The notes: generated by a model from the sequence alone, not told the origin. Numbered from the stretch's first letter, positions 38,410-61,842 are shown. The stretch: 64,000 nucleotides of DNA from Acidobacteriota bacterium (GCA_050747825.1 JBOGJG010000277.1:9791-73790); one strand, 5' to 3'. Translations and numbers: made by a program.

Positions 38410-40428
38410 TTACAGGCCAAGCTCGACCAAGTCGTCCTTCTTCTTTTTCTTGAGCACCATCTCTTCGTAGTACTCGCGGACCTGAGCTGCCTCCTTGGCA
38501 GCCTTGCGGCGAAGCAGCTTTTCGTCACGGGCCGTCTGCGGCAACTCACCCTTGTCTTTTAGGCGGGCCACGTCTTCAACGTTGAGCCTGAGCGAGTGCT
38601 CATAACTTTGCAGATTTACATTGTTACCCCCGGCAAAGATCTCATGGCGTCCGTTGTCTTCGTACCACTTGGCGACGGTTGCATTCATGTGCATGTGCTC
38701 GATGATATTGCGCCAGCCATGGCCCGTGTTGTAGGCGCAAAAGGAAATCTCACCTTCCTGAGTAGCGTAGGGGATGATGCACATCTCGGTCCGGCGAAAG
38801 TCGTAGTTGAAAAGATCCTGGAACCACATGCCTGCGATGAAGAGAAAGTTCCAGCGATCGTTGCGACGCTCTTCCGGCGTCACCCCGTAATTCTTGCCGG
38901 TCAAGCCAAAGCTCTTATCAAACTTCTTCAGAATGTCCAGAAGAGTCAGGTTTGATGGAGACTTGAACGGTTTGTAGTGCTTGAGCAACGCCAGGCCCAT
39001 CATCAAATTGGAGAAATTCTTGCTGCGGGCCGCATCCGTCAGCTTGCGCATGTCGGCGACCAATCCGGGAATATCAAGGAACTGAGGAACGGGAGCAGCC
39101 TCTTTGGTCTCCTTGTCGATCATCACGGCCGTTCCCACGCCGCAGTTGGGGTGGCAACCACAGCTCACCTGACCCCAGTCGGCATTGGGCCCATGCACTA
39201 GATCTGCAAAATCGGCAAAGGCACCCATCAGAGAAAGGGGAAACCAGTCTCGAGTGGGTTCAGTCATCCCCGTCTGCCTTTTCACATCGAGCGCCATATG
39301 GGAAAGCGTGTAGCGCTGGCGCAGCCGGCGCTCATCGGTAATGGCCTCATCACGGCCGGTGAAAGAGACCGGTTGGAAAGAAATGAAGGCAACCTTCTTG
39401 GGATTGTCCATGGCAAAGCGGATAATGGGCCCGACCTGGTCGTTGTTGACATCGTTGACCAGGGTGGTGACCAGGACGATCTCGATTCCCGCCGCGTGAA
39501 TATTGTCGATAGCCTTGAGCTTCACATCAAAGAGGTTGCCGATGTGACGGTGACTGTTGGCGTCATTGCCGATGCCGTCGAACTGCAGATAGGTGTAGCG
39601 CAGACCGGCTTCGGCCGCTTTGTGCGCAAAATCCAGGCTCTTGGCAAATTCAATTCCATTGGTCGCGCACTGCACGCTGTTGTAGCCGATCTTGCGCGCG
39701 TATTTAATGGCGCGGAAAAAGTGGGGAGACAGCGTCGGCTCGCCGCCTGAAAACTGTACCGACATCTGCCGGCGCGGCTTAATTTGCAGGGCATTGTCTA
39801 GAATCTCTTTGATTTCCTCCCACTCCAGCTCATGGACAAAACCTACCTGGTTGGCGTCCATGAAACAGGGATCACACATCATATTGCAGCGATTGGTGAG
39901 ATCGACGGTCAGCACCGATCCGCGACCATGCTTAATGGTGCTGGAGCCATGATTGTGCAATGTCTCATCGTTGTGGGCTCGAATGTCACGGCCGGGGAAA
40001 TTGGACTCGATCCACTTGAGAAATTTGGAATCGATGGCCATGATGTCCTCGAATTTCCCATGTTGAGGGCAATCCTTGACCATCCATACCTGGCCGTCGC
40101 GTTCGATAATCTGGGCTTTGACTTCTCCCACCTTTTCCTCTTTAAGGATTCGGTAGTCCTCATTGCCCTTCAAGATTTTCGCGCGCACCTCGACCACACA
40201 TTTAGGGCACAGAGAATCGGTTTCACGAGGCCAGCCGAGATTCGGCTTGGACTTCTCCCACGATTTCAACAGCGGCTTGTCGGACCAGCGCGGAGTAAAT
40301 GATGGGTTGGGCCTGTATTTATTGAAAAACTGGATAGCGTCGAAAGCTTTGCCCGCCGTAAAGCACAGGACCGAGTCGAGGCATTTGACAGCGGTTTTGG
40401 AAACGCTCCTGGGCATAAGTTCTTCCAC
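38410..40428 (-). CDS. Radical SAM protein, tetraether-lipid-synthase (Tes/GDGT-MAS)-like architecture
   Basis: 672 aa. N-terminal Cys/His ribbon (CPKC...46 aa...CPQH), radical SAM cluster motif TNRCNMMCDPCF (CxxxCxxC), and two more Cys clusters further C-terminal (SCGCHPNCG; C...C near residue 570). The Tes-like call is an inference from architecture. Confidence 0.6.
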   Translation of the reverse strand: MEELMPRSVSKTAVKCLDSVLCFTAGKAFDAIQFFNKYRPNPSFTPRWSDKPLLKSWEKSKPNLGWPRETDSLCPKCVVEVRAKILKGNEDYRILKEEKVGEVKAQIIERDGQVWMVKDCPQHGKFEDIMAIDSKFLKWIESNFPGRDIRAHNDETLHNHGSSTIKHGRGSVLTVDLTNRCNMMCDPCFMDANQVGFVHELEWEEIKEILDNALQIKPRRQMSVQFSGGEPTLSPHFFRAIKYARKIGYNSVQCATNGIEFAKSLDFAHKAAEAGLRYTYLQFDGIGNDANSHRHIGNLFDVKLKAIDNIHAAGIEIVLVTTLVNDVNNDQVGPIIRFAMDNPKKVAFISFQPVSFTGRDEAITDERRLRQRYTLSHMALDVKRQTGMTEPTRDWFPLSLMGAFADFADLVHGPNADWGQVSCGCHPNCGVGTAVMIDKETKEAAPVPQFLDIPGLVADMRKLTDAARSKNFSNLMMGLALLKHYKPFKSPSNLTLLDILKKFDKSFGLTGKNYGVTPEERRNDRWNFLFIAGMWFQDLFNYDFRRTEMCIIPYATQEGEISFCAYNTGHGWRNIIEHMHMNATVAKWYEDNGRHEIFAGGNNVNLQSYEHSLRLNVEDVARLKDKGELPQTARDEKLLRRKAAKEAAQVREYYEEMVLKKKKKDDLVELGL

Positions 40429-40586: not shown

Positions 40587-41183
40587 ATGTTAACGATTAC
40601 TCGAGAAGCAAGAGATCAAATTCTGGCTGCTATGAAGGAGCAGGAACCCGGCAGGACCGCCGTCCGCGTGATGGCCCAGATCAGTGGGCTGGACTTTACT
40701 TACGGTATGAAACTGATCGGCCCGGAAGAGAAGAACGCTGAAGACGTGGCCATCCCTGAGGATGGCTTCGACGTGGTGATGGATGCCAAGAGCGCCGAGC
40801 ATCTCGAAGGAGCCACCCTGGATTTCGAAGATGGTATCCTGAAAAGCGGATTCAAGTTCAACAATCCTAACAAGCCGGAAGTCCCCTCCATTGGCGGAGG
40901 TCCGCGTCCTGATCTGGCGGGCCCTGTCGCCGAAAGGGTGCAGATGTTGATCGATACCGAGTTGAATCCGGCCGTGGCCGCTCACGGGGGGAAAATGAGC
41001 CTCCTCGGCGTTCGCGATGATAAAGCTTACCTGACGTTCGGAGGAGGCTGCCATGGCTGCGGGATGGTGGACGTCACCCTTAAGCAGGGAGTCGAAGCCA
41101 GAATTCGGGAGCTCATCCCTGAGATTCAGGAAGTCGTGGACGTGACCGACCACAGCACCGGCGAAAATCCCTTCTATCGTTAA
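40587..41183 (+). CDS. nfuA: NfuA-type Fe-S cluster biogenesis protein (degenerate A-type-carrier domain plus Nfu domain)
   Basis: N-terminal HesB-like domain without Cys ligands and a C-terminal Nfu domain with GGGCHGCGM (CxxC). Confidence 0.75.
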   Translation: MLTITREARDQILAAMKEQEPGRTAVRVMAQISGLDFTYGMKLIGPEEKNAEDVAIPEDGFDVVMDAKSAEHLEGATLDFEDGILKSGFKFNNPNKPEVPSIGGGPRPDLAGPVAERVQMLIDTELNPAVAAHGGKMSLLGVRDDKAYLTFGGGCHGCGMVDVTLKQGVEARIRELIPEIQEVVDVTDHSTGENPFYR

Positions 41184-42304: not shown

Positions 42305-42422
42305 TTAGGTTTTGAGATTAGATATACTTTACTCTTCCAGCAAGGTGGTACGCGCGTTTGTACTGGCTCCGTACTTCTGATATAAAATGACGCTTTTTAA
42401 AGCATGCCACTTGAGGTGTGGA

Positions 42423-43601
42423 ATGAATAAGAGATATGTAGCTCTGTTATTGCTCGTTGTGCTGGCTCCGATCGGCATCCTCTCCTGTAACGGGGGCACT
42501 GGCGGGGCGGACGGTGTATTTGCACAGATGCAGAAGGAACGCCGCGCTTACGTGGCCACCGTACCGTTCGAACCGCCTCTAATCTTTCAGGCCGGCGGGC
42601 AGATGGTTGGTCCGGATGCGGAACTGGCGCGCCGCGTGGTTGAGAAGATCAATGAGAAGCTGGGTGCCAGCGGTATCGAGTTGGACTTTATCACCCGCAA
42701 CTACAGCACTATCATTCCTGCCGTGCAAAACCATGAGGCCGCCTTTGGACTCGGTGTTCTGGGAATAACGGACCAGCGCAAGCAGCACATCCAGTTCTCC
42801 AATCCTTATTACGTGTCCGAACTGGTGATGCTGATTGACCCCGCCCATAAGGATATTCGTTCCAATCAGCTCGACGGTGCCAAGATTGGCGTACGATCCA
42901 ACACGGCTGCCGCCGAATTCGTGCACAAGCAATATGAGCAAAGTACGGTCCAGGGATTCGGCACTCTCGACGATGCTGTCCTGGCTCTGAGACGGGGCGA
43001 CATTGACGCTGTCATTGACGATCGCAACATGGGCGCCTTTGCCCTGGCCACCCTTCCTGCAGTAACTCAACTGGAAATCATCCCTGGTGTCATTGCCGAA
43101 ATCCAGTGCGCCGTGGCCGTCGCTCAGGGAAACAGTGAGCTGCTCGACATTGTCAATGAGGTGATCGCCACTGTTCAGGCCGAAAACCTTTATGCGCAGT
43201 GGCTCAATGAGCAACTAGGCGAGCGGCTCGCCCAGCTCGCCCAGGTGGAAGGGCGACACGCCGCCCGAACCGAAAAAGAACGTCAGGCTCGAGCCCACCG
43301 CCAGGTTGTCATTCGGGTCTCCAAAGATGCCTCCAATCCGTTCGATATTTACCGTTTCGCCAACCTGAGCTTTGTGCTGACCAATCGTGACACCGGGCAG
43401 ACTTACAGTACCTCGCGGATTCATTTTCAGGGCCGGGTGGGGGTCAGCAGCACCAATGTGCCTCCGGGCACCTATTCGCTGTCTCTCCCCAGGTTCGGAT
43501 TTAATGCGGGCTCAGTTGCAATCGGCTCTCAAGACGCCCGCCAGGTGAACATCTCGATCCGCCTGGGCTCCAATAACCAGGTCTCAGTCACAAAAAGCTA
43601 G
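42423..43601 (+). CDS. Substrate-binding lipoprotein (type-3 periplasmic binding fold) with C-terminal extension
   Basis: Signal plus lipobox ...GILSCNGG. Solute-binding PBP fold blocks and an extra C-terminal domain of about 120 aa. Start set at MNKRYV. Confidence 0.6.
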   Translation: MNKRYVALLLLVVLAPIGILSCNGGTGGADGVFAQMQKERRAYVATVPFEPPLIFQAGGQMVGPDAELARRVVEKINEKLGASGIELDFITRNYSTIIPAVQNHEAAFGLGVLGITDQRKQHIQFSNPYYVSELVMLIDPAHKDIRSNQLDGAKIGVRSNTAAAEFVHKQYEQSTVQGFGTLDDAVLALRRGDIDAVIDDRNMGAFALATLPAVTQLEIIPGVIAEIQCAVAVAQGNSELLDIVNEVIATVQAENLYAQWLNEQLGERLAQLAQVEGRHAARTEKERQARAHRQVVIRVSKDASNPFDIYRFANLSFVLTNRDTGQTYSTSRIHFQGRVGVSSTNVPPGTYSLSLPRFGFNAGSVAIGSQDARQVNISIRLGSNNQVSVTKS

Positions 43602-43627
43602 TGTAGTGCCCAGGCTCACTTTTGCTC

Positions 43628-43656
43628 TTGACACTCGTAAAATCCTGCCTAATACT
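43628..43656 (+). promoter_or_regulatory. Sigma70-type promoter upstream of the porin gene
   Basis: TTGACA (43628-33), 16-nt spacer, TAATAC (43650-55). Confidence 0.5.
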
Positions 43657-43661
43657 CTTAG

Positions 43662-43690
43662 CTAATGAAATTGATTTTCAATTTCATTAG
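43662..43690. promoter_or_regulatory. Perfect 13-bp-arm AT-rich palindrome (operator candidate) at the porin transcription start region
   Basis: CTAATGAAATTGA-TTT-TCAATTTCATTAG, immediately downstream of the -10 element. Confidence 0.55.
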
Positions 43691-43721
43691 TTGGAATTGA
43701 ATTCGAGGGACGAATGGGGAA

Positions 43722-43750
43722 GGAGCGCGTTGCTCGCAGCAACGCGCTCC
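43722..43750 (+). other. Perfect 13-bp GC-rich stem-loop in the porin 5' leader
   Basis: GGAGCGCGTTGCT-CGC-AGCAACGCGCTCC. A further 7-bp hairpin (GACTCTC-tatttg-GAGAGTC) sits at about 43793-43812. The leader from -10 to the ATG is roughly 195 nt. Confidence 0.5.
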
Positions 43751-43852
43751 CGTTGGCGCCAGGTTTTGCTCGTTTCCAACGCCGTCCTCAGTATAAGGAC
43801 TCTCTATTTGGAGAGTCAAACGTCCCTCCTCACTAAACAGAAGGAGGAGAAG

Positions 43853-45238
43853 ATGAGGAATTATTGGTTTGGTTTTCGGGGTGCGGCCAGAGCATGGCTT
43901 CTGCTGTATGTGGTCTGGTCAACGGCGGGGGCGGTCTGGGGCGCTCAACGAGACGAGGCGGATGAATTGAAAGCCAGAATCGAGGAGTTGGAGAAACGCC
44001 TGGGGCAGTTGGAAACAAAGGAGGAGGCGCCCGCTTCTGAGAGAACCGTCAATGTGGAAGAATTAAGGCGCCAACTGGACATCCTGGCCCAGGAAGTCGA
44101 AAGGATGCGTGCCGGAGAGCAGAAGATAGAGCTAAGCGAGGCGCAAAAACGGGGACTGGGACTGGCCCCTTCGGCGGGAGCGACTTACGAGAGGCGACAG
44201 GGAATTTCCCTTTCCGGCTACGGAGAGATGCTCTACCAGAATCGCGATGATGAGAATGAAAGCGGGTTACCCAGTTCAGATGACACTCGACTCGACTTTC
44301 TCAGGCACGTCTTCTACATGGGATATCGTTTCAGCGACAAACTGATTTTCAATTCGGAAATCGAAGTCGAGCACGCCAATGAGATCGGCGTCGAGTTCGC
44401 CTATATCGATTTTCTGGCCAACGAACATATCGGCCTGCGAGGCGGAATGTTGCTGCTTCCTATGGGCCTCACCAACGAGTTCCATGAACCAAATGTCTTC
44501 CTGGGAGCCAAGCGTCCTGAGACGGAGACCCGGATCATCCCCTCCACCTGGCGGGAGAACGGATTTGGAGTGGTCGGCAGGGCCGGAATCTTTAACTACC
44601 GCGCTTACGTTGTCAACGGACTCAACGCCGCCAATTTCAGCGCCAGCGGTATCAGAGGCGGGCGCCAGAAAGGCAGCCAGGCCAGGGCGCAGGATCTGGC
44701 CTTTGTGGGACGCCTTGACGTCAACCCTACCCCCGGCGTCTTCTTTGGCGGATCACTTTACCGGGGCGGCTCGGATCAGGGGCAATTCGAGGTAAGCGGC
44801 AGCGAGTTGAGCGTCGATACACTCATCGGGGAAGTGCATGGACAGGTTCAAGTCCGGGGTCTGGATCTCAGGGGCCTTTACGCACAGGCCCAACTGGACG
44901 ATGTCGCCGGCCTGAATTTGGCCCTGGGCCGGTCAGGCTCACAGGCGATTGCCCAGACTATGGAGGGCGGCTATTTGCAGTTTGGGTATAACGTCCTCTC
45001 CCAGCATACAGAGCGGTTTCGGCTGACGCCTTATTACCGGCTCGAAATGGTGGATACTCAGGCCGAGCTCCCGGCCGGCTTCACCTCCAATGAGGCGCAG
45101 GACGGCATTTTTCATACCATGGGATTCGAGTTTCGTCCCATTCACGGCGTGGTGGTCAAGACCGACTACCAGTGGATACGCAATGAGGCAAATAGCGGGC
45201 TGAATCAGTTCAATGTAAACCTGGGCTATGCCTTTTGA
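43853..45238 (+). CDS. Outer-membrane porin with N-terminal coiled coil (OprO/P- or DcaP-like)
   Basis: Signal peptide, an approximately 70-aa heptad coiled coil, then an amphipathic beta-strand barrel ending ...NVNLGYAF (C-terminal Phe). Start set at MRNYWFG with an AAGGAGGAG SD. Confidence 0.6.
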   Translation: MRNYWFGFRGAARAWLLLYVVWSTAGAVWGAQRDEADELKARIEELEKRLGQLETKEEAPASERTVNVEELRRQLDILAQEVERMRAGEQKIELSEAQKRGLGLAPSAGATYERRQGISLSGYGEMLYQNRDDENESGLPSSDDTRLDFLRHVFYMGYRFSDKLIFNSEIEVEHANEIGVEFAYIDFLANEHIGLRGGMLLLPMGLTNEFHEPNVFLGAKRPETETRIIPSTWRENGFGVVGRAGIFNYRAYVVNGLNAANFSASGIRGGRQKGSQARAQDLAFVGRLDVNPTPGVFFGGSLYRGGSDQGQFEVSGSELSVDTLIGEVHGQVQVRGLDLRGLYAQAQLDDVAGLNLALGRSGSQAIAQTMEGGYLQFGYNVLSQHTERFRLTPYYRLEMVDTQAELPAGFTSNEAQDGIFHTMGFEFRPIHGVVVKTDYQWIRNEANSGLNQFNVNLGYAF

Positions 45239-45304: not shown

Positions 45305-45901
45305 GTGACTGAATTTATGCACCAATGTACTAAGCCTTTCCGCCACGGCCGATGGCGGCGCCGCACACTGGCTGTCCTTTTTTTCTTGTACCCGGCCGGT
45401 GTACTCGGCGGACCGGTTATCAGCCGCGAGGAGGCTCTGGCGGCCGCCTACTCGGAGGCGGCTATTGAGGCGGAAAGGATCTTTTTAACTGAGCGCCAGC
45501 TCAGGCAGGCGGAAGCTCTCTGCGGAGAGGAAATCCCCAGCCCGCTGATTGCGCGTTACACAGCCATTCGAGATGGGAAGATCGTCGGCCGTGCCTATAT
45601 AGACACTCATGTAGTCCGAACGAAGAACGAAAGTCTCCTCATATGCCTGGACCAAGCAGGCAAGGTCAGGAGAATTGAAGTCACTGCCTTTATGGAGCCG
45701 CCGGAGTATCAGGCCTCCGAAGCCTGGCTGAATCAGTATCGGGATAAACATCTGAGCGATGATCTGCATTTGCAGCGCTCGATCCGTGCCATTGCCGGAG
45801 CCACGCTTACAGCCTTGGCTGCCAATCGCGCGGTGCGGCGAGTGCTGGCTATCGATCGCGTTCTCACACAGACCGTCGCTCATTCTCGGGCGAAGAAATG
45901 A
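45305..45901 (+). CDS. FMN-binding domain protein (flavinylation substrate), exported
   Basis: N-terminal Arg-rich signal/anchor, FMN_bind-type domain with flavinylation motif IAGATLTA (the [ST]GAT[LIV][ST] context of NqrC/RnfG/NosR). Confidence 0.65.
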   Translation: MTEFMHQCTKPFRHGRWRRRTLAVLFFLYPAGVLGGPVISREEALAAAYSEAAIEAERIFLTERQLRQAEALCGEEIPSPLIARYTAIRDGKIVGRAYIDTHVVRTKNESLLICLDQAGKVRRIEVTAFMEPPEYQASEAWLNQYRDKHLSDDLHLQRSIRAIAGATLTALAANRAVRRVLAIDRVLTQTVAHSRAKK

Positions 45902-46374
45902 ATACCTGGGAGAAGTGGACTTTTCACATCTCAGCGGTCCTCGTCTCATTGACCGGAGTGGCTTATCTGTGGATGAAGTATCTGTTGGAAGGCAGCGATC
46001 CCTTCAGCGTGATCAATCACCCCTGGCAGCCTTTTTTCCTGCACCTTCATATTGTGGCAGCTCCTTTCCTGCTCTTCATTGTGGGGGTACTCTTCCCCTC
46101 CCATATCCTGGGAAAACTCGGCAAGACGAAGGTGCCCAATCGCCGCTCCGGCTGGGTGACGCTGATCTCTTTTCCCATTATGGCCGTCTCCGGCTATCTG
46201 CTTCAGGTGGTAAACCACCCTCTGCTCCTTCAGATGACCCTGCTGCTGCATCTGGCCGGCGGTGGGCTTTTTGTGGTGTCTTATGCCATCCACCAGGTGG
46301 TCAGCGTCCGCCTCCTCAAAGCCGCCTACGGGCGCAAGGCAGGTGACGGGTGGCAGGTGACGGGTGGCAGGTGA
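45898..46374 (+). CDS. His-rich 4-TM membrane protein (MsrQ-like/DUF4405-like putative b-type haem carrier)
   Basis: Four predicted TM helices with conserved His in TM1, TM2 and TM4. ATGA start/stop overlap with the upstream gene. The C-terminal tail is encoded by a 14-mer tandem repeat. Confidence 0.5.
   Translation: MNTWEKWTFHISAVLVSLTGVAYLWMKYLLEGSDPFSVINHPWQPFFLHLHIVAAPFLLFIVGVLFPSHILGKLGKTKVPNRRSGWVTLISFPIMAVSGYLLQVVNHPLLLQMTLLLHLAGGGLFVVSYAIHQVVSVRLLKAAYGRKAGDGWQVTGGR
46338..46374. repeat. Tandem 14-mer (GGCAGGTGACGGGT) x about 2.6
   Basis: ggcaggtgacgggtggcaggtgacgggtggcaggtga, at the 3' end of the 4-TM gene. Confidence 0.8.
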
Positions 46375-46380
46375 AACAGC

Positions 46381-47400
46381 GTGAGCCATCTGCTGTACTT
46401 GAAAGTCTTTACTGCAACGGCGCTCATGATGCTTTCAGCGCCCAGCGATGCGTTGGTCGAGGTCAAGCGGGAAGTGTTTCTGATGGGCACGCGCTGCACT
46501 CTGACGGCCTACGCCTCTGACGGCACCGGGGGACTGGAAAACCTAGAGTCATTCCTACGTATTCTGGAGCAGTCCGAACGGGAGCTGAGCACCTGGCGAG
46601 CGGATAGTCTTTTCAGTCAGTTGAACCGTCAGCCACCAGGTGTGCCCTTGGGCCTGGACCGTTCTTTATGCCGGCTTCTCTCCGATCTTTTCTATTGGAA
46701 TCGAGAGACGGGATTGGCTTTTGATCCCGGCATCGGCGCTCTTATCGAGGTTTGGGGATTGCGAGAGGGCGGCAAGGTTCCCTCCCCTGAATCCATCGAG
46801 ACAGCCCGCAAGCAGGCAGGGCTCAACTACTTCAGGCTTGATCCCAATCAATGCGAGATCACGCGCACCCAGAACGTTTGGATTGACAGCGGCGCCTTCG
46901 GCAAAGGCGAGGCTCTGGATCGAGTCCATCGATATGCTTCTCAAATAGACAGTGGTCCCTGGATGATTGACTTGGGTGGACAGATCATGGTGAGTGGATC
47001 TCCTCCAGACGAGGAAGGCTGGGAAGTCGGCCTGGCGCATCCCGTACGACGGGGAAAATCGGTCCTGAAGCTGAGGCTCAAGGAAGGATCACTGGCCGCC
47101 AGCGGGGGATCGGAAAGGGATTTGGCGGTCCATGGCGCACGCGTCGGGCATATCCTCGATCCGCGCACCGGCCGGCCGGCAGCCTTCAAGGGCTCAGTCG
47201 TCGTCTGGCACCAGCAAGCTCTCGTCGCCGATATTCTTTCCACCGCTCTTTTCGTCATGGGACCTGAAGAGGGACTCTCCTGGGCCAACTCCAGGCAGGT
47301 GGCAGCCTGTTTTATCTTCCCATCTAGCGACGCCCGTTGTCACGAGATTAGCGCCAGCCTTTCTTTCTCCAGTCTCTTCCCACTGACCACTGACCACTGA
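46381..47400 (+). CDS. apbE: FAD:protein FMN transferase (ApbE family), periplasmic
   Basis: Signal peptide, then ApbE-family blocks (VFLMGT...ALD.GA..KG...ASGG...). GTG start. The C-terminal codons run into the heptamer array. Confidence 0.75.
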   Translation: MSHLLYLKVFTATALMMLSAPSDALVEVKREVFLMGTRCTLTAYASDGTGGLENLESFLRILEQSERELSTWRADSLFSQLNRQPPGVPLGLDRSLCRLLSDLFYWNRETGLAFDPGIGALIEVWGLREGGKVPSPESIETARKQAGLNYFRLDPNQCEITRTQNVWIDSGAFGKGEALDRVHRYASQIDSGPWMIDLGGQIMVSGSPPDEEGWEVGLAHPVRRGKSVLKLRLKEGSLAASGGSERDLAVHGARVGHILDPRTGRPAAFKGSVVVWHQQALVADILSTALFVMGPEEGLSWANSRQVAACFIFPSSDARCHEISASLSFSSLFPLTTDH

Positions 47401-47481
47401 CCGCTGACCGCTGACCGCTGACCACTGACCGCTGACCGCTGACCACTGACCACTGACCGCTGACCGCTGACCGCTGACCGC
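47381..47481. repeat. Heptamer microsatellite (CACTGAC/CGCTGAC)n, about 14 units
   Basis: Direct head-to-tail 7-nt units with two variant bases. No spacers, so not CRISPR. Confidence 0.9.
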
Positions 47482-51623: not shown

Positions 51624-53444
51624 CTAGCCCTTAACTTTAATCTTAATTACGTGCTGACCGGTCAGCACAAAGTCGGTAGGAGGCAGCTCATATTCAAAAT
51701 AAATAACCTTGTCAATGGCCTTTAGAGCCCCGCCGGTCTTCTGGGAATTATAGAGAGCCAGCAGCGAAGGCGGCAGATCCGGGAGCCCTTCACCACCGGC
51801 CACGACACCCGCACCTTCCCGGAAGAGTCGGATATACAACCGGTCGTTCTTCTTCAGGTTGTTAATCGCCTTGATCAGTTGCTGCAGGCTCTTGGGCACG
51901 AACTCGTCCACATCCGATTCGGCATCCACTTTGATCAACGACAACCCGTCTCCCACCATTATCCTGAGTGGTCCTGGCGTAATATCCTCGGGGATCATCA
52001 CAGGGTATTCTTCAACGATCGTATCTCCATTGGCTCGGCGCAGAAAAACCGTCAGGTTCACTTCTTCTCCCGGGCGCGCTTCCAATTTGTCCTGCCAGAC
52101 TTTCTCGAGAGTTGCTTCGCGTGTCTGTTCGACAGCCGTAATTTCCACGTCAATGCGTTCCATTTCCAGATCTTCAAAGCCGCTGCTCAGGAGAAAGTTG
52201 ATGGGCGAGGAAGCCGCCATCGCGGCAAAGACCGGCGTACTGACCAAATCGGAAACGCTATTCTCGAAATGGACATCGGGTTGTCCCCGCACGGCAATTT
52301 TACATTTGATTTCCAGGGTCTGGCCGCCAATGGCGCGCTCCGAGGCAATGATGCTGTTGTGAACCGTGAAGGTCATCAGGAAAGGCGTCAGGAATTGATC
52401 GGTGATGACTTCGTAGTTGTATTCTTTCAGCTCATTGCGACTCGTCATTATCTTCAGGCCAATCGGAATCATGTCCGCCTCCTCTCCGACAATACCCATG
52501 ATGCCGGTCGCCCGGTCCTGCTTGATGCTGCCGATAGAGGCCGTGGTGGCTGAGACCTTTTCGCTGTTCATCAGGTTAGGAATGATTGTCAGCACAGCCG
52601 CCTTGTTGAGCGGCATGTCGGTATACCCCATGCTCAGGAACGGATGCCCGAAGGCATATATCTTGTCTCCGCTGAGGTGAGTGACCGTGCCGCTGGCGCT
52701 CACTTCCATGTCACCGCGCACCATCTGGACACTGATGGTCGATCCGGGTTCCAACGGCGCGTTCAGGAAATCGTTGGTTTTCCCGCTCCCGATTCCACGG
52801 ATCGGAGTCAGCCCGAGGGCCTTCAGTTGGGGAGCGAAAGACCGGATGGCTGCCGGCGAGAAGCCGGAAAGATTCAGTGGAGTCGCTATGGGCGTCAACT
52901 TGCCCGCGCCCTCCAAAGAGCCGGTATTGAGCAAAAAGGGATCGACATCAAAACTGGGAAGCTGAGGTAATAGCTCGCTCAATTTGAATTGCGCGGCCTG
53001 ATACATAGCACCGGGGCCGTCGTAGCGGACCTTTCGGTAATCCACTTTGGGAGATTCTTTGAAAATGTCCACCATTTCCTGGATCGGCGTAATGCCCGCG
53101 ATTGGAGCTTTGGCGAATTTAAAGGCGTACGCTACGGCGCCTACCAGCTTGCCATCAATATAAACCGGGCTGCCGCTCATGCCGGCAAATACACCCGTCT
53201 CCTCCAACTTCTCGCCGGAAAGCCGGGCCAAAATCAGGTTCTGCTTGGGTCCGACGTTCTCGAGCACACCCAGTACCTCGACATCGAAATTCTCGACAGT
53301 CGTGCCTTTGAATATGGTCCTTCCGTAACCTTGTTGTCCCGGTTTCACCAACTCCAGAGGATAAAAGTCTGCCGACTGAGCGCTGATCATCGCAGGCGTC
53401 GTGATGATCAAAGCCAGCACGATACCGAGTATTTTAAAATTCAT
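51624..53444 (-). CDS. SpoIVB-type (S55) serine peptidase-like secreted protein
   Basis: Signal peptide and a GMSGSPVY catalytic-serine context typical of S55/SpoIVB. 606 aa. Confidence 0.55.
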   Translation of the reverse strand: MNFKILGIVLALIITTPAMISAQSADFYPLELVKPGQQGYGRTIFKGTTVENFDVEVLGVLENVGPKQNLILARLSGEKLEETGVFAGMSGSPVYIDGKLVGAVAYAFKFAKAPIAGITPIQEMVDIFKESPKVDYRKVRYDGPGAMYQAAQFKLSELLPQLPSFDVDPFLLNTGSLEGAGKLTPIATPLNLSGFSPAAIRSFAPQLKALGLTPIRGIGSGKTNDFLNAPLEPGSTISVQMVRGDMEVSASGTVTHLSGDKIYAFGHPFLSMGYTDMPLNKAAVLTIIPNLMNSEKVSATTASIGSIKQDRATGIMGIVGEEADMIPIGLKIMTSRNELKEYNYEVITDQFLTPFLMTFTVHNSIIASERAIGGQTLEIKCKIAVRGQPDVHFENSVSDLVSTPVFAAMAASSPINFLLSSGFEDLEMERIDVEITAVEQTREATLEKVWQDKLEARPGEEVNLTVFLRRANGDTIVEEYPVMIPEDITPGPLRIMVGDGLSLIKVDAESDVDEFVPKSLQQLIKAINNLKKNDRLYIRLFREGAGVVAGGEGLPDLPPSLLALYNSQKTGGALKAIDKVIYFEYELPPTDFVLTGQHVIKIKVKG

Positions 53445-60017: not shown

Positions 60018-61661
<1,644 letters not shown>

Positions 61662-61799: not shown

Positions 61800-61842
61800 G
61801 AGCAAGGCGGGCTCGCGCTGGCGGGCCCGCCTTGCTCTTTGT
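61800..61842 (+). terminator. Rho-independent terminator of the groESL operon
   Basis: GAGCAAGGCGGGC-(12 nt)-GCCCGCCTTGCTC followed by TTTGTCTG. Confidence 0.6.

Follow-up and report, generated by a model that had tools for sequence, protein, structure and literature searches.

Fur, Zur and PerR regulators share a 7-1-7 DNA motif, and work in Bacillus and E. coli has resolved the classical 19-bp Fur box into two overlapping 7-1-7 sites. Cis-antisense control that works through hairpins is represented by CopA/CopT of plasmid R1 and RNA I/RNA II of ColE1, and ompA-type porin mRNAs carry a long structured 5' UTR. At the Synechocystis isiA locus the sense transcript and the antisense RNA IsrR are degraded together, which sets a threshold for induction (PMC8635728). 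Work on ApbE-flavinylated extracytosolic systems has tied them to iron reduction and assimilation, and PepSY-like flavinylated reductase clusters are Fur-repressed in Shewanella and Caulobacter (PMC8238504).

The locus described here shares features with each of these. It lies in a stretch of 64,000 nt from an Acidobacteriota bacterium (GCA_050747825.1 JBOGJG010000277.1:9791-73790), the whole of which we call the window and from whose first letter positions are counted. From sequence comparison we propose, with a probability of about 60%, that an operon encoding a porin, an FMN-binding protein, a membrane protein and ApbE is repressed by a Fur-family regulator, probably in response to iron, and that a convergent antisense transcript runs across its structured leader. 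The elements discussed are as follows.

43628-43656, plus strand: predicted sense promoter, -35 TTGACA at 43628-33, spacer of 17 nt, -10 AATACT at 43651-56; 10/12 in a consensus scan
43662-43706, no strand assigned: putative Fur-family operator array, composed of the 29-bp dyad 43662-43690 (boxes 43666-80 and 43672-86) and a weaker third box at 43692-43706
43715-43783, minus strand: predicted cis-antisense RNA, about 65-70 nt if it ends at P1, with a 5' GGCGUUGG hairpin followed by P1
43722-43750, folds on either strand: P1, a perfect 13-bp GC-rich hairpin with a 3-nt loop
43751-43784, plus strand: P2, a helix directly 3' of P1 with two possible registers
43819..43790, minus strand: predicted antisense promoter, -35 TTGACT at 43819-14, spacer of 18 nt, -10 TATACT at 43795-90; 10/12 in a consensus scan
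43825-32, plus strand: anti-SD CCCTCCTC, a pyrimidine tract that pairs with the SD
43842-49, plus strand: SD AGGAGGAG, followed by the ATG start codon at 43853-55
43853-45238, plus strand: porin, 461 aa, fold match, no Pfam match
45305-45901, plus strand: FMN-binding protein (FMN_bind, Pfam)
45898-46374, plus strand: four-helix membrane protein, 158 aa, with no match to Pfam, PepSY included
46381-47400, plus strand: ApbE flavin transferase (Pfam)

The porin operon and its putative Fur-family operator

Judged by its AlphaFold2 model (pLDDT 82, pTM 0.74), the first gene of the operon encodes a porin, with a fold like the 16-18-stranded beta-barrels of solved porins: a Foldseek search with the model returned OmpT, OmpU, PorB, OprP and OmpM1 at E-values of 1e-11 to 1e-13. 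The protein has an N-terminal coiled coil, and a sequence search of the PDB gave coiled-coil matches only. The nearest homologues belong to Acidobacteriota and share no more than 65% identity with it, and the four-gene cassette is kept in 73 of the 80 genomic loci that we fetched with the porin. Upstream, 42387-43601 encodes an SBP_bac_3 protein extended by a long C-terminal part, and 40587-41183 a NifU/Fe-S biogenesis fusion; L008 and L071 keep both in synteny with the porin operon, and the SBP_bac_3 gene alone is in L204 and L211, which hints at a larger iron-related neighbourhood. At the other end of the operon a tandem repeat of CTGACCG (47383-47481, 14 copies, 94% matches) runs across the ApbE stop codon at 47400 into the spacer, and reads on the minus strand as a repetitive SGQRSAV open reading frame.

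The predicted sense promoter is the one that the initial annotation had given as TTGACA-16-TAATAC, which is TTGACA-17-AATACT read one base over. A consensus scan over 1.5 kb found two promoter-like sites, one on each strand, against 0.5 expected, and the form TTGACN-N17/18-nATACT also stands 5' of two real genes in the window. From this promoter transcription would begin at about 43663 and yield a leader of about 190 nt, whose predicted fold is much better than those of shuffled sequences (z = -5.9). A longer, TTG-started reading frame (43691..) that passes through the hairpins is a listing artefact, as had been suspected from the start: the orthologues begin at the methionine equivalent to the ATG at 43853.

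Three inverted repeats had been pointed out in this region, and all three are present in the sequence. The AT-rich dyad CTAATGAAATTGA-TTT-TCAATTTCATTAG occupies 43662-43690 and the GC-rich dyad GGAGCGCGTTGCT-CGC-AGCAACGCGCTCC occupies 43722-43750, 32 nt away; in each the arms match at 13 of 13 positions around a 3-nt loop. The third, GACTCTC-6-GAGAGTC, is a 7-bp dyad that exists as described and lies at 43798-43817, not at the 43793-43812 first given for it. The two 13-bp dyads are two of the three perfect inverted repeats with 13-bp arms and loops of at most 12 nt in the whole 64-kb window. The remaining one, GAGCAAGGCGGGC-12-GCCCGCCTTGCTC at 61800-61837, probably an intrinsic terminator, is followed by TTTGTCTG and lies about 140 nt past the stop codon of the gene 60021-61661.

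Such dyads could in principle arise by chance or belong to a dispersed REP or MITE-like repeat, a reading with next to no probability that has their palindromic shape in its favour and nothing more. Composition-preserving block shuffles of the window (n = 200) contained on average 0.005 perfect 13-bp dyads and never more than 1, in agreement with the original remark that such stems are rare by chance; P1 is single-copy in the window, and in other genomes the leader was matched at the orthologous position only.

The AT-rich dyad begins 6 nt past the predicted -10 element and covers the predicted transcription start. It can be decomposed into two 7-1-7 units, TGAAATT-g-ATTTTCA and TGATTTT-c-AATTTCA, offset by 6 bp; the corresponding boxes TGAAATTgATTTTCA and TGATTTTcAATTTCA have 1 and 2 mismatches to the palindromic pattern. 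That pattern matches 7 times in the window against 2.4 expected, and the best three matches cluster at 43662-43706. We found no other convincing copy of the operator or of the leader elsewhere in the window, and no Fur or DtxR homologue within its 64 kb.

Comparison across orthologous loci supports an operator strongly. The motif 5' of porin orthologues is always located just past a TTGACA-type promoter, with TTGACA 30-45 nt 5' of the operator, and overlaps the predicted promoter or start in a like layout; examples are TGAAATTGAAATTGAATTTCAATTTCA in L002 and TTGAAATTGATTTTCAATTTCAA in L019, L024, L071 and L202. Boxes of this type (type A) matched 28 times in 47 kb upstream of porin orthologues and once in 957 kb elsewhere. 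Vicinamibacterial relatives have a sister motif (type B), TGAGATT-n-AATCTCA, often present twice around the promoter, with 76 upstream matches versus 17 elsewhere, and a box of one type or the other is present in 64 of the 80 porin loci. In Vicinamibacteria-type loci (L016, L020, L030, L038, L045, L203 and others) the spacer of the sense promoter also holds an inverted repeat TTGACCGAC-N5-7-GGTCGGGTATA (CCGAC...GTCGG), additional to the two TGAGAT...ATCTCA boxes that flank the promoter, which may be a site for a further regulator.

We also scanned metagenomes for the exact 21-mer TGAAATTGATTTTCAATTTCA, the core of the dyad, and found it in at least 120 contigs. Gene contexts were taken from contigs with a GC content of at least 40%, where the site is intergenic. 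Among the matches listed, the 21-mer lies 44 nt before ZnuA-family genes in 30 loci, before TonB-dependent receptors in 6, 8-14 nt before FUR-family genes in 5 and before feoB in 1. About half of the listed matches were set aside as coding coincidences: in marine contigs of 27-31% GC (L082, L087, L091, L098 and about 55 other low-GC loci of L081-L200) the 21-mer sits inside a conserved open reading frame of about 330 aa, where it has nothing to do with the operator and reflects chance in coding sequence or a conserved run of codons. In two high-GC porin loci that carry the 21-mer exactly (L128 1187-1530 and L132 3926-4270, the latter on the minus strand), operator and porin are about 330 nt apart, and the stretch between them appears to encode a small Cys-rich (CxxC...CxxC) peptide and not a hairpin leader.

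The suggestion that the AT-rich dyad is a repressor operator lying over the start has thus gained a specific form, that of a Fur-family box array, which is conserved and recurs ahead of metal-uptake and fur genes elsewhere. Of the possible metals iron is the most likely, with zinc or manganese as alternatives; the largest set of exact 21-mers, before ZnuA-family genes, could point to a Zur-type regulator. Five porin loci have a gene for a DtxR/IdeR-type repressor (Fe_dep_repr_C) directly upstream of the porin on the same strand.

L008, 5179-5700: DtxR/IdeR-type gene
L206, 51-572: DtxR/IdeR-type gene
L208, 82-603: DtxR/IdeR-type gene
L209, 156-677: DtxR/IdeR-type gene
L210, 17-541: DtxR/IdeR-type gene

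In L208 and L209 a palindrome CTTAGTGC-GAG-GCACTAAG occupies the short spacer in place of the Fur-type box. At the DtxR/IdeR loci one regulator seems to have taken the place of another, with the porin operon unchanged.

Covariation in the stem-loops P1 and P2

Thirteen leaders, which we call group A, share the layout of the window: the window itself, L002, L004, L008, L012, L017, L019, L024, L029, L202, L204, L207 and L211. A GC hairpin is found at the equivalent place in all 13, and 5' of the porin in the window the features common to the group are the P1 and P2 helices and the blocks AACGCC, AGTATA and AGTCAA. Both the AT dyad and the GC dyad are conserved in orthologous leaders, contrary to the refuting condition set in the initial annotation, that neither would be. 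P2 can form in a first register, CGTTGG 43751-56 with CCAACG 43776-81, or in the register common to relatives, UGGCG 43754-58 with CGCCG 43780-84.

Alignment with MAFFT followed by RNAalifold recovered P1 only, because loop lengths differ, and we therefore used covariance models, including one seeded with a single sequence. A model built from the window sequence alone (R2) and searched over 0.76 Mb matched exactly ten orthologous leaders and nothing else in the window. A model built from these ten without the window (R3) in turn found the window at 43718-43835 (91.6 bits, E = 3.6e-21), with no other match there, and neither R2 nor R3 had a match in 0.44 Mb of unrelated operator-bearing contigs. 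Covariation was counted on the ten orthologues found by R2, with the window left out, in alignments that are fitted to the structure and so favour it. Counted in this way, 94% of the cells of P1 and P2 together pair (94.5% for P1 alone and 93.9% for P2), and both partners have changed in 12 of the 18 pairs (9 of 13 in P1, 3 of 5 in P2). None of 500 shuffles reached the observed values, and slid controls paired at 37-46%.

Across group A the arms of P1 have only 3-9 of their first 10 positions in common between leaders, and 3-8 between distinct lineages, with 139 of 146 stem positions Watson-Crick and loops of 3-8 nt. The arms drift while pairing is kept, and therefore the comparison indicates that the P1/P2 fold is under selection. 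The initial annotation had taken the GC hairpin for a real structure, and with its conservation in 13 leaders and its compensatory changes this view holds. The same numbers make it very improbable that P1 acts as another operator at the DNA level, bound as a GC-rich palindrome by a dimeric transcription factor. P1 is indeed a perfect palindrome between two promoters, and in a second group of leaders described below (group B) its arms are fairly conserved in sequence; a protein site would be expected to preserve its sequence and its spacing rather than complementarity, whereas the group-A arms diverge, the loop varies in length and the pairing stays.

A further reading, which takes in the attenuator first proposed, makes the GC hairpin a transcriptional attenuator of the sense leader or an element of a ligand-sensing riboswitch there. 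In its favour are the strength and conservation of the hairpin, the length of the leader, the P2 helix that adjoins P1 and the U-rich runs that some leaders have 8-15 nt past P1. We nevertheless regard it as improbable. P1 in the window has no U-tract on either side: its 3' tail is CGUUGGCGCC, a terminator scan does not list it, and on the sense strand of all 13 group-A leaders, the window included, the stem is not followed directly by a U-tract, for which reason P1 is not taken for an attenuator. No conserved alternative anti-terminator pairing was found. Rfam 15 returned nothing relevant at E up to 10 in 43400-44100 and no match at the gathering score in 10 related loci, which speaks against a known riboswitch or RNA family. 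Finally, conservation outside the stems is confined, GGCGU/ACGCC of P2 aside, to the hexamers of a predicted minus-strand promoter. Of the riboregulator originally proposed, what stands is a structured leader under a probable cis-antisense transcript; an attenuator or a known riboswitch finds no support.

Three smaller candidates were rejected on inspection of the sequences alone. The motif of a possible CsrA site (AAGGA) lacks conservation, the variable positions of a supposed aconitase-bound, IRE-like loop (CAGUAUA) agree better with a -10 hexamer, and P1 is far more stable than a small alternative hairpin plus U-run after it.

P1 and P2 may matter mainly in the mRNA. Wobble pairs in group A favour the sense strand, with about 11 G.U against about 3 A.C, and in P2 the U.G wobbles of 5 orthologues do so as well. 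Four orthologous loci have the operator without the whole leader module, and the module is therefore dispensable, an accessory layer.

A predicted convergent promoter on the minus strand

Apart from the stems and AACGCC of P2, two blocks are invariant in group A, AGTATA and AGTCAA, with 17-18 nt of changing sequence between them; taken on the minus strand this gives TTGACT-N17/18-TATACT. The information content of the 13 group-A and 34 group-B leaders (47 in all) peaks exactly on the two hexamers, and the sequence between them is variable with its length fixed at 17-18 nt. Promoters of the same form, TTGACN-N18-nATACT, precede two real minus-strand genes in the window, 51624-53444(-) and 38410-40428(-), by 33-40 nt. 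In our reading of these sequences this promoter-like element, which the initial annotation had overlooked, is the most interesting feature of the locus. The 7-bp dyad 43798-43817 falls inside its 18-nt spacer. Orthologous leaders usually allow some hairpin at this place, with other sequences and registers, and we rejected a conserved helix here; the third hairpin does not hold as a conserved RNA hairpin, its sequence being variable and its conserved flanks being the -10 and -35 elements of the predicted minus-strand promoter.

Transcription from this promoter would start at about 43783-43781, some 120 nt from the sense start and facing it. We infer that the product is a cis-antisense RNA, with a predicted fold of -39.5 kcal/mol (z = -3.9) and a 5' GGCGTT that is conserved in group A. 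In the window its 3' tail, UUCCCCAUUCG, is not U-rich and forms no canonical terminator, and no recognisable antisense terminator was seen in group A. In the lineage without a U-tail, P1 probably serves as matching stem-loops in both transcripts.

The vicinamibacterial leaders of group B show the unit in a fuller form. Their covariance model (R1) found 32 full-length copies before porin operons, and further copies at three sites, before the gene for the P19 Fe2+ transport protein, with its own promoter and operator, before a TonB-dependent receptor, and at a third site where nearby open reading frames had no Pfam match.

L043, 3482-3751: group-B module before P19 (PF10634)
L050, 9213-9350: group-B module before a TonB receptor; intercistronic, between ApbE and the receptor, with no sense promoter or operator in front
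L064, 4884-5025: group-B module, third site

The minus-strand promoter of group B has the form TTGCGY-N17/18-TAnnAT, in which T1, A2, A5 and T6 of the -10 element are invariant over 34 leaders. In group-B P1, 96% of cells pair and 7 of 12 pairs show double changes. Of the cells that are not Watson-Crick, 11 are A.C, equivalent to G.U on the minus strand, and 3 are G.U; on the minus strand P1 is followed by a U-rich tail in about 20 of the 34 leaders. By these signals the group-B module is a complete putative antisense small-RNA gene, with a promoter, about 100 nt of RNA and a terminator made of P1 and the U-tail. A further hairpin around the -10 element (P3, GUCCU/AGGAC) has double changes in 5 of 5 group-B pairs, with 75% of cells pairing; it is not consistent in group A, and we rejected it as a general helix of these leaders. 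The window is missed by R1, and group B by R3. The two groups are thus not detectably homologous by covariance model, and the terminator reading is therefore applied to the window by analogy, a common origin being unsupported by the models.

A serious alternative, which we consider unlikely but the best of those weighed, is that the leader is a structured 5' UTR acting in the sense direction only. P1, P2 and the hexamers would then have their function in the mRNA, where they might stabilise it as a stem-loop, offer a docking site to a protein or sRNA, or control translation through the anti-SD, and the promoter look of the minus strand would be coincidental. The sense-strand bias of the P1 and P2 wobbles in group A, the z-score of the leader fold and the lack of an antisense terminator in group A all favour this alternative, as does the pairing of anti-SD with SD, which is possible in 6 of 10 group-A leaders and so is partially conserved. 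It does less well with the conserved TTGACT and TATACT, since two hexamers around a variable spacer of fixed length characterise a promoter rather than an RNA motif. Two real genes nearby are driven by a promoter of this form, and group B has a full minus-strand unit with a terminator and with wobbles that favour the minus strand. We accordingly retain, as the probable reading, a Fur-family-controlled operon whose leader is crossed by an antisense transcript.

Proposed control and comparison with known systems

In the proposed scheme control would have three layers. A metal-loaded repressor on the boxes at 43662-43706 would block initiation at the sigma-70-type promoter 43628-56; the leader of about 190 nt would carry the selected pair of stem-loops P1 and P2; and the minus-strand promoter would send a short antisense RNA through P2 and P1 toward the Fur-controlled promoter. 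While the repressor is on, the antisense RNA or converging polymerases would remove leaky sense transcripts, and a firing sense promoter would override the antisense, giving a sharp induction threshold like that of isiA/IsrR. Pairing of the anti-SD at 43825-32 with the SD may add translational damping, and matching stem-loops in both RNAs would suit pairing initiated by hairpins. The iron context comes from the group-B module before P19 and a TonB receptor, from the five loci in which a DtxR/IdeR gene adjoins the porin, and from the Fur repression of the related, PepSY-like reductase clusters.

Acidobacteriota are abundant in soil and groundwater, and we found little on their metal regulation or regulatory RNAs; a full-text literature search for Fur boxes in Acidobacteriota returned nothing about Acidobacteria. 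The locus gives an operator motif usable for regulon prediction, a conserved four-gene cassette of porin and flavinylated reductase tied to iron, and 47 instances of a leader module resembling a convergent antisense transcription unit. The leader module is absent from Rfam; the Fur-plus-antisense type of control is already known. If the antisense RNA exists, it would be a compact example of threshold control by Fur and antisense outside cyanobacteria, and a new RNA family for annotation pipelines, which report nothing here. Tentatively, and as a possibility that we consider less likely than not, Acidobacteriota may possess a phylum-wide class of small antisense RNA genes, each with its own sigma-70 promoter and GC hairpin, placed head-on in the 5' UTRs of Fur-family-controlled iron-uptake operons (porin/flavin reductase, P19, TonB receptors) and forming a two-promoter switch with the Fur box; their conserved 5' GGCGUU may act in trans like RyhB-type iron sRNAs.

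The operator agrees with Fur-family boxes in being an AT-rich TGAnAnT-n-AnTnTCA inverted repeat, in the overlap of sites offset by 6 bp, in its position over -10/+1 and in its occurrence before metal-uptake genes and fur-family genes themselves. It differs in its half-site, TGAAATT and not TGATAAT, and related lineages control the same operon with another half-site (TGAGATT) or a DtxR-type regulator. Like ompA, the porin gene encodes an outer-membrane protein and has a long structured leader, with a 5'-end stem-loop once the operator dyad is transcribed; the two leaders have no sequence or Rfam relationship, and to our knowledge ompA is without an antisense promoter, unlike the pattern of conservation seen here. 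PepSY-like/ApbE clusters likewise combine ApbE with a flavinylated periplasmic protein and a small membrane partner and have links to iron and Fur (PMC8238504), whereas the membrane protein here had no Pfam match and a dedicated porin leads the operon.

With isiA/IsrR the locus shares a Fur-type operator on the sense promoter and an antisense RNA at the same place, the latter here only predicted. There is no sequence relationship between the two, and IsrR lies within the coding region, whereas the predicted antisense RNA of the window lies in the 5' UTR between facing promoters about 120 nt apart. CopA/CopT and RNA I/RNA II resemble the predicted arrangement in that the sense and the antisense transcript carry complementary stem-loops and the antisense RNA is short and lies over a leader; the present locus differs in being chromosomal and, probably, in serving iron uptake. 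A hairpin that needs to fold on both strands would explain the perfect pairing of P1.
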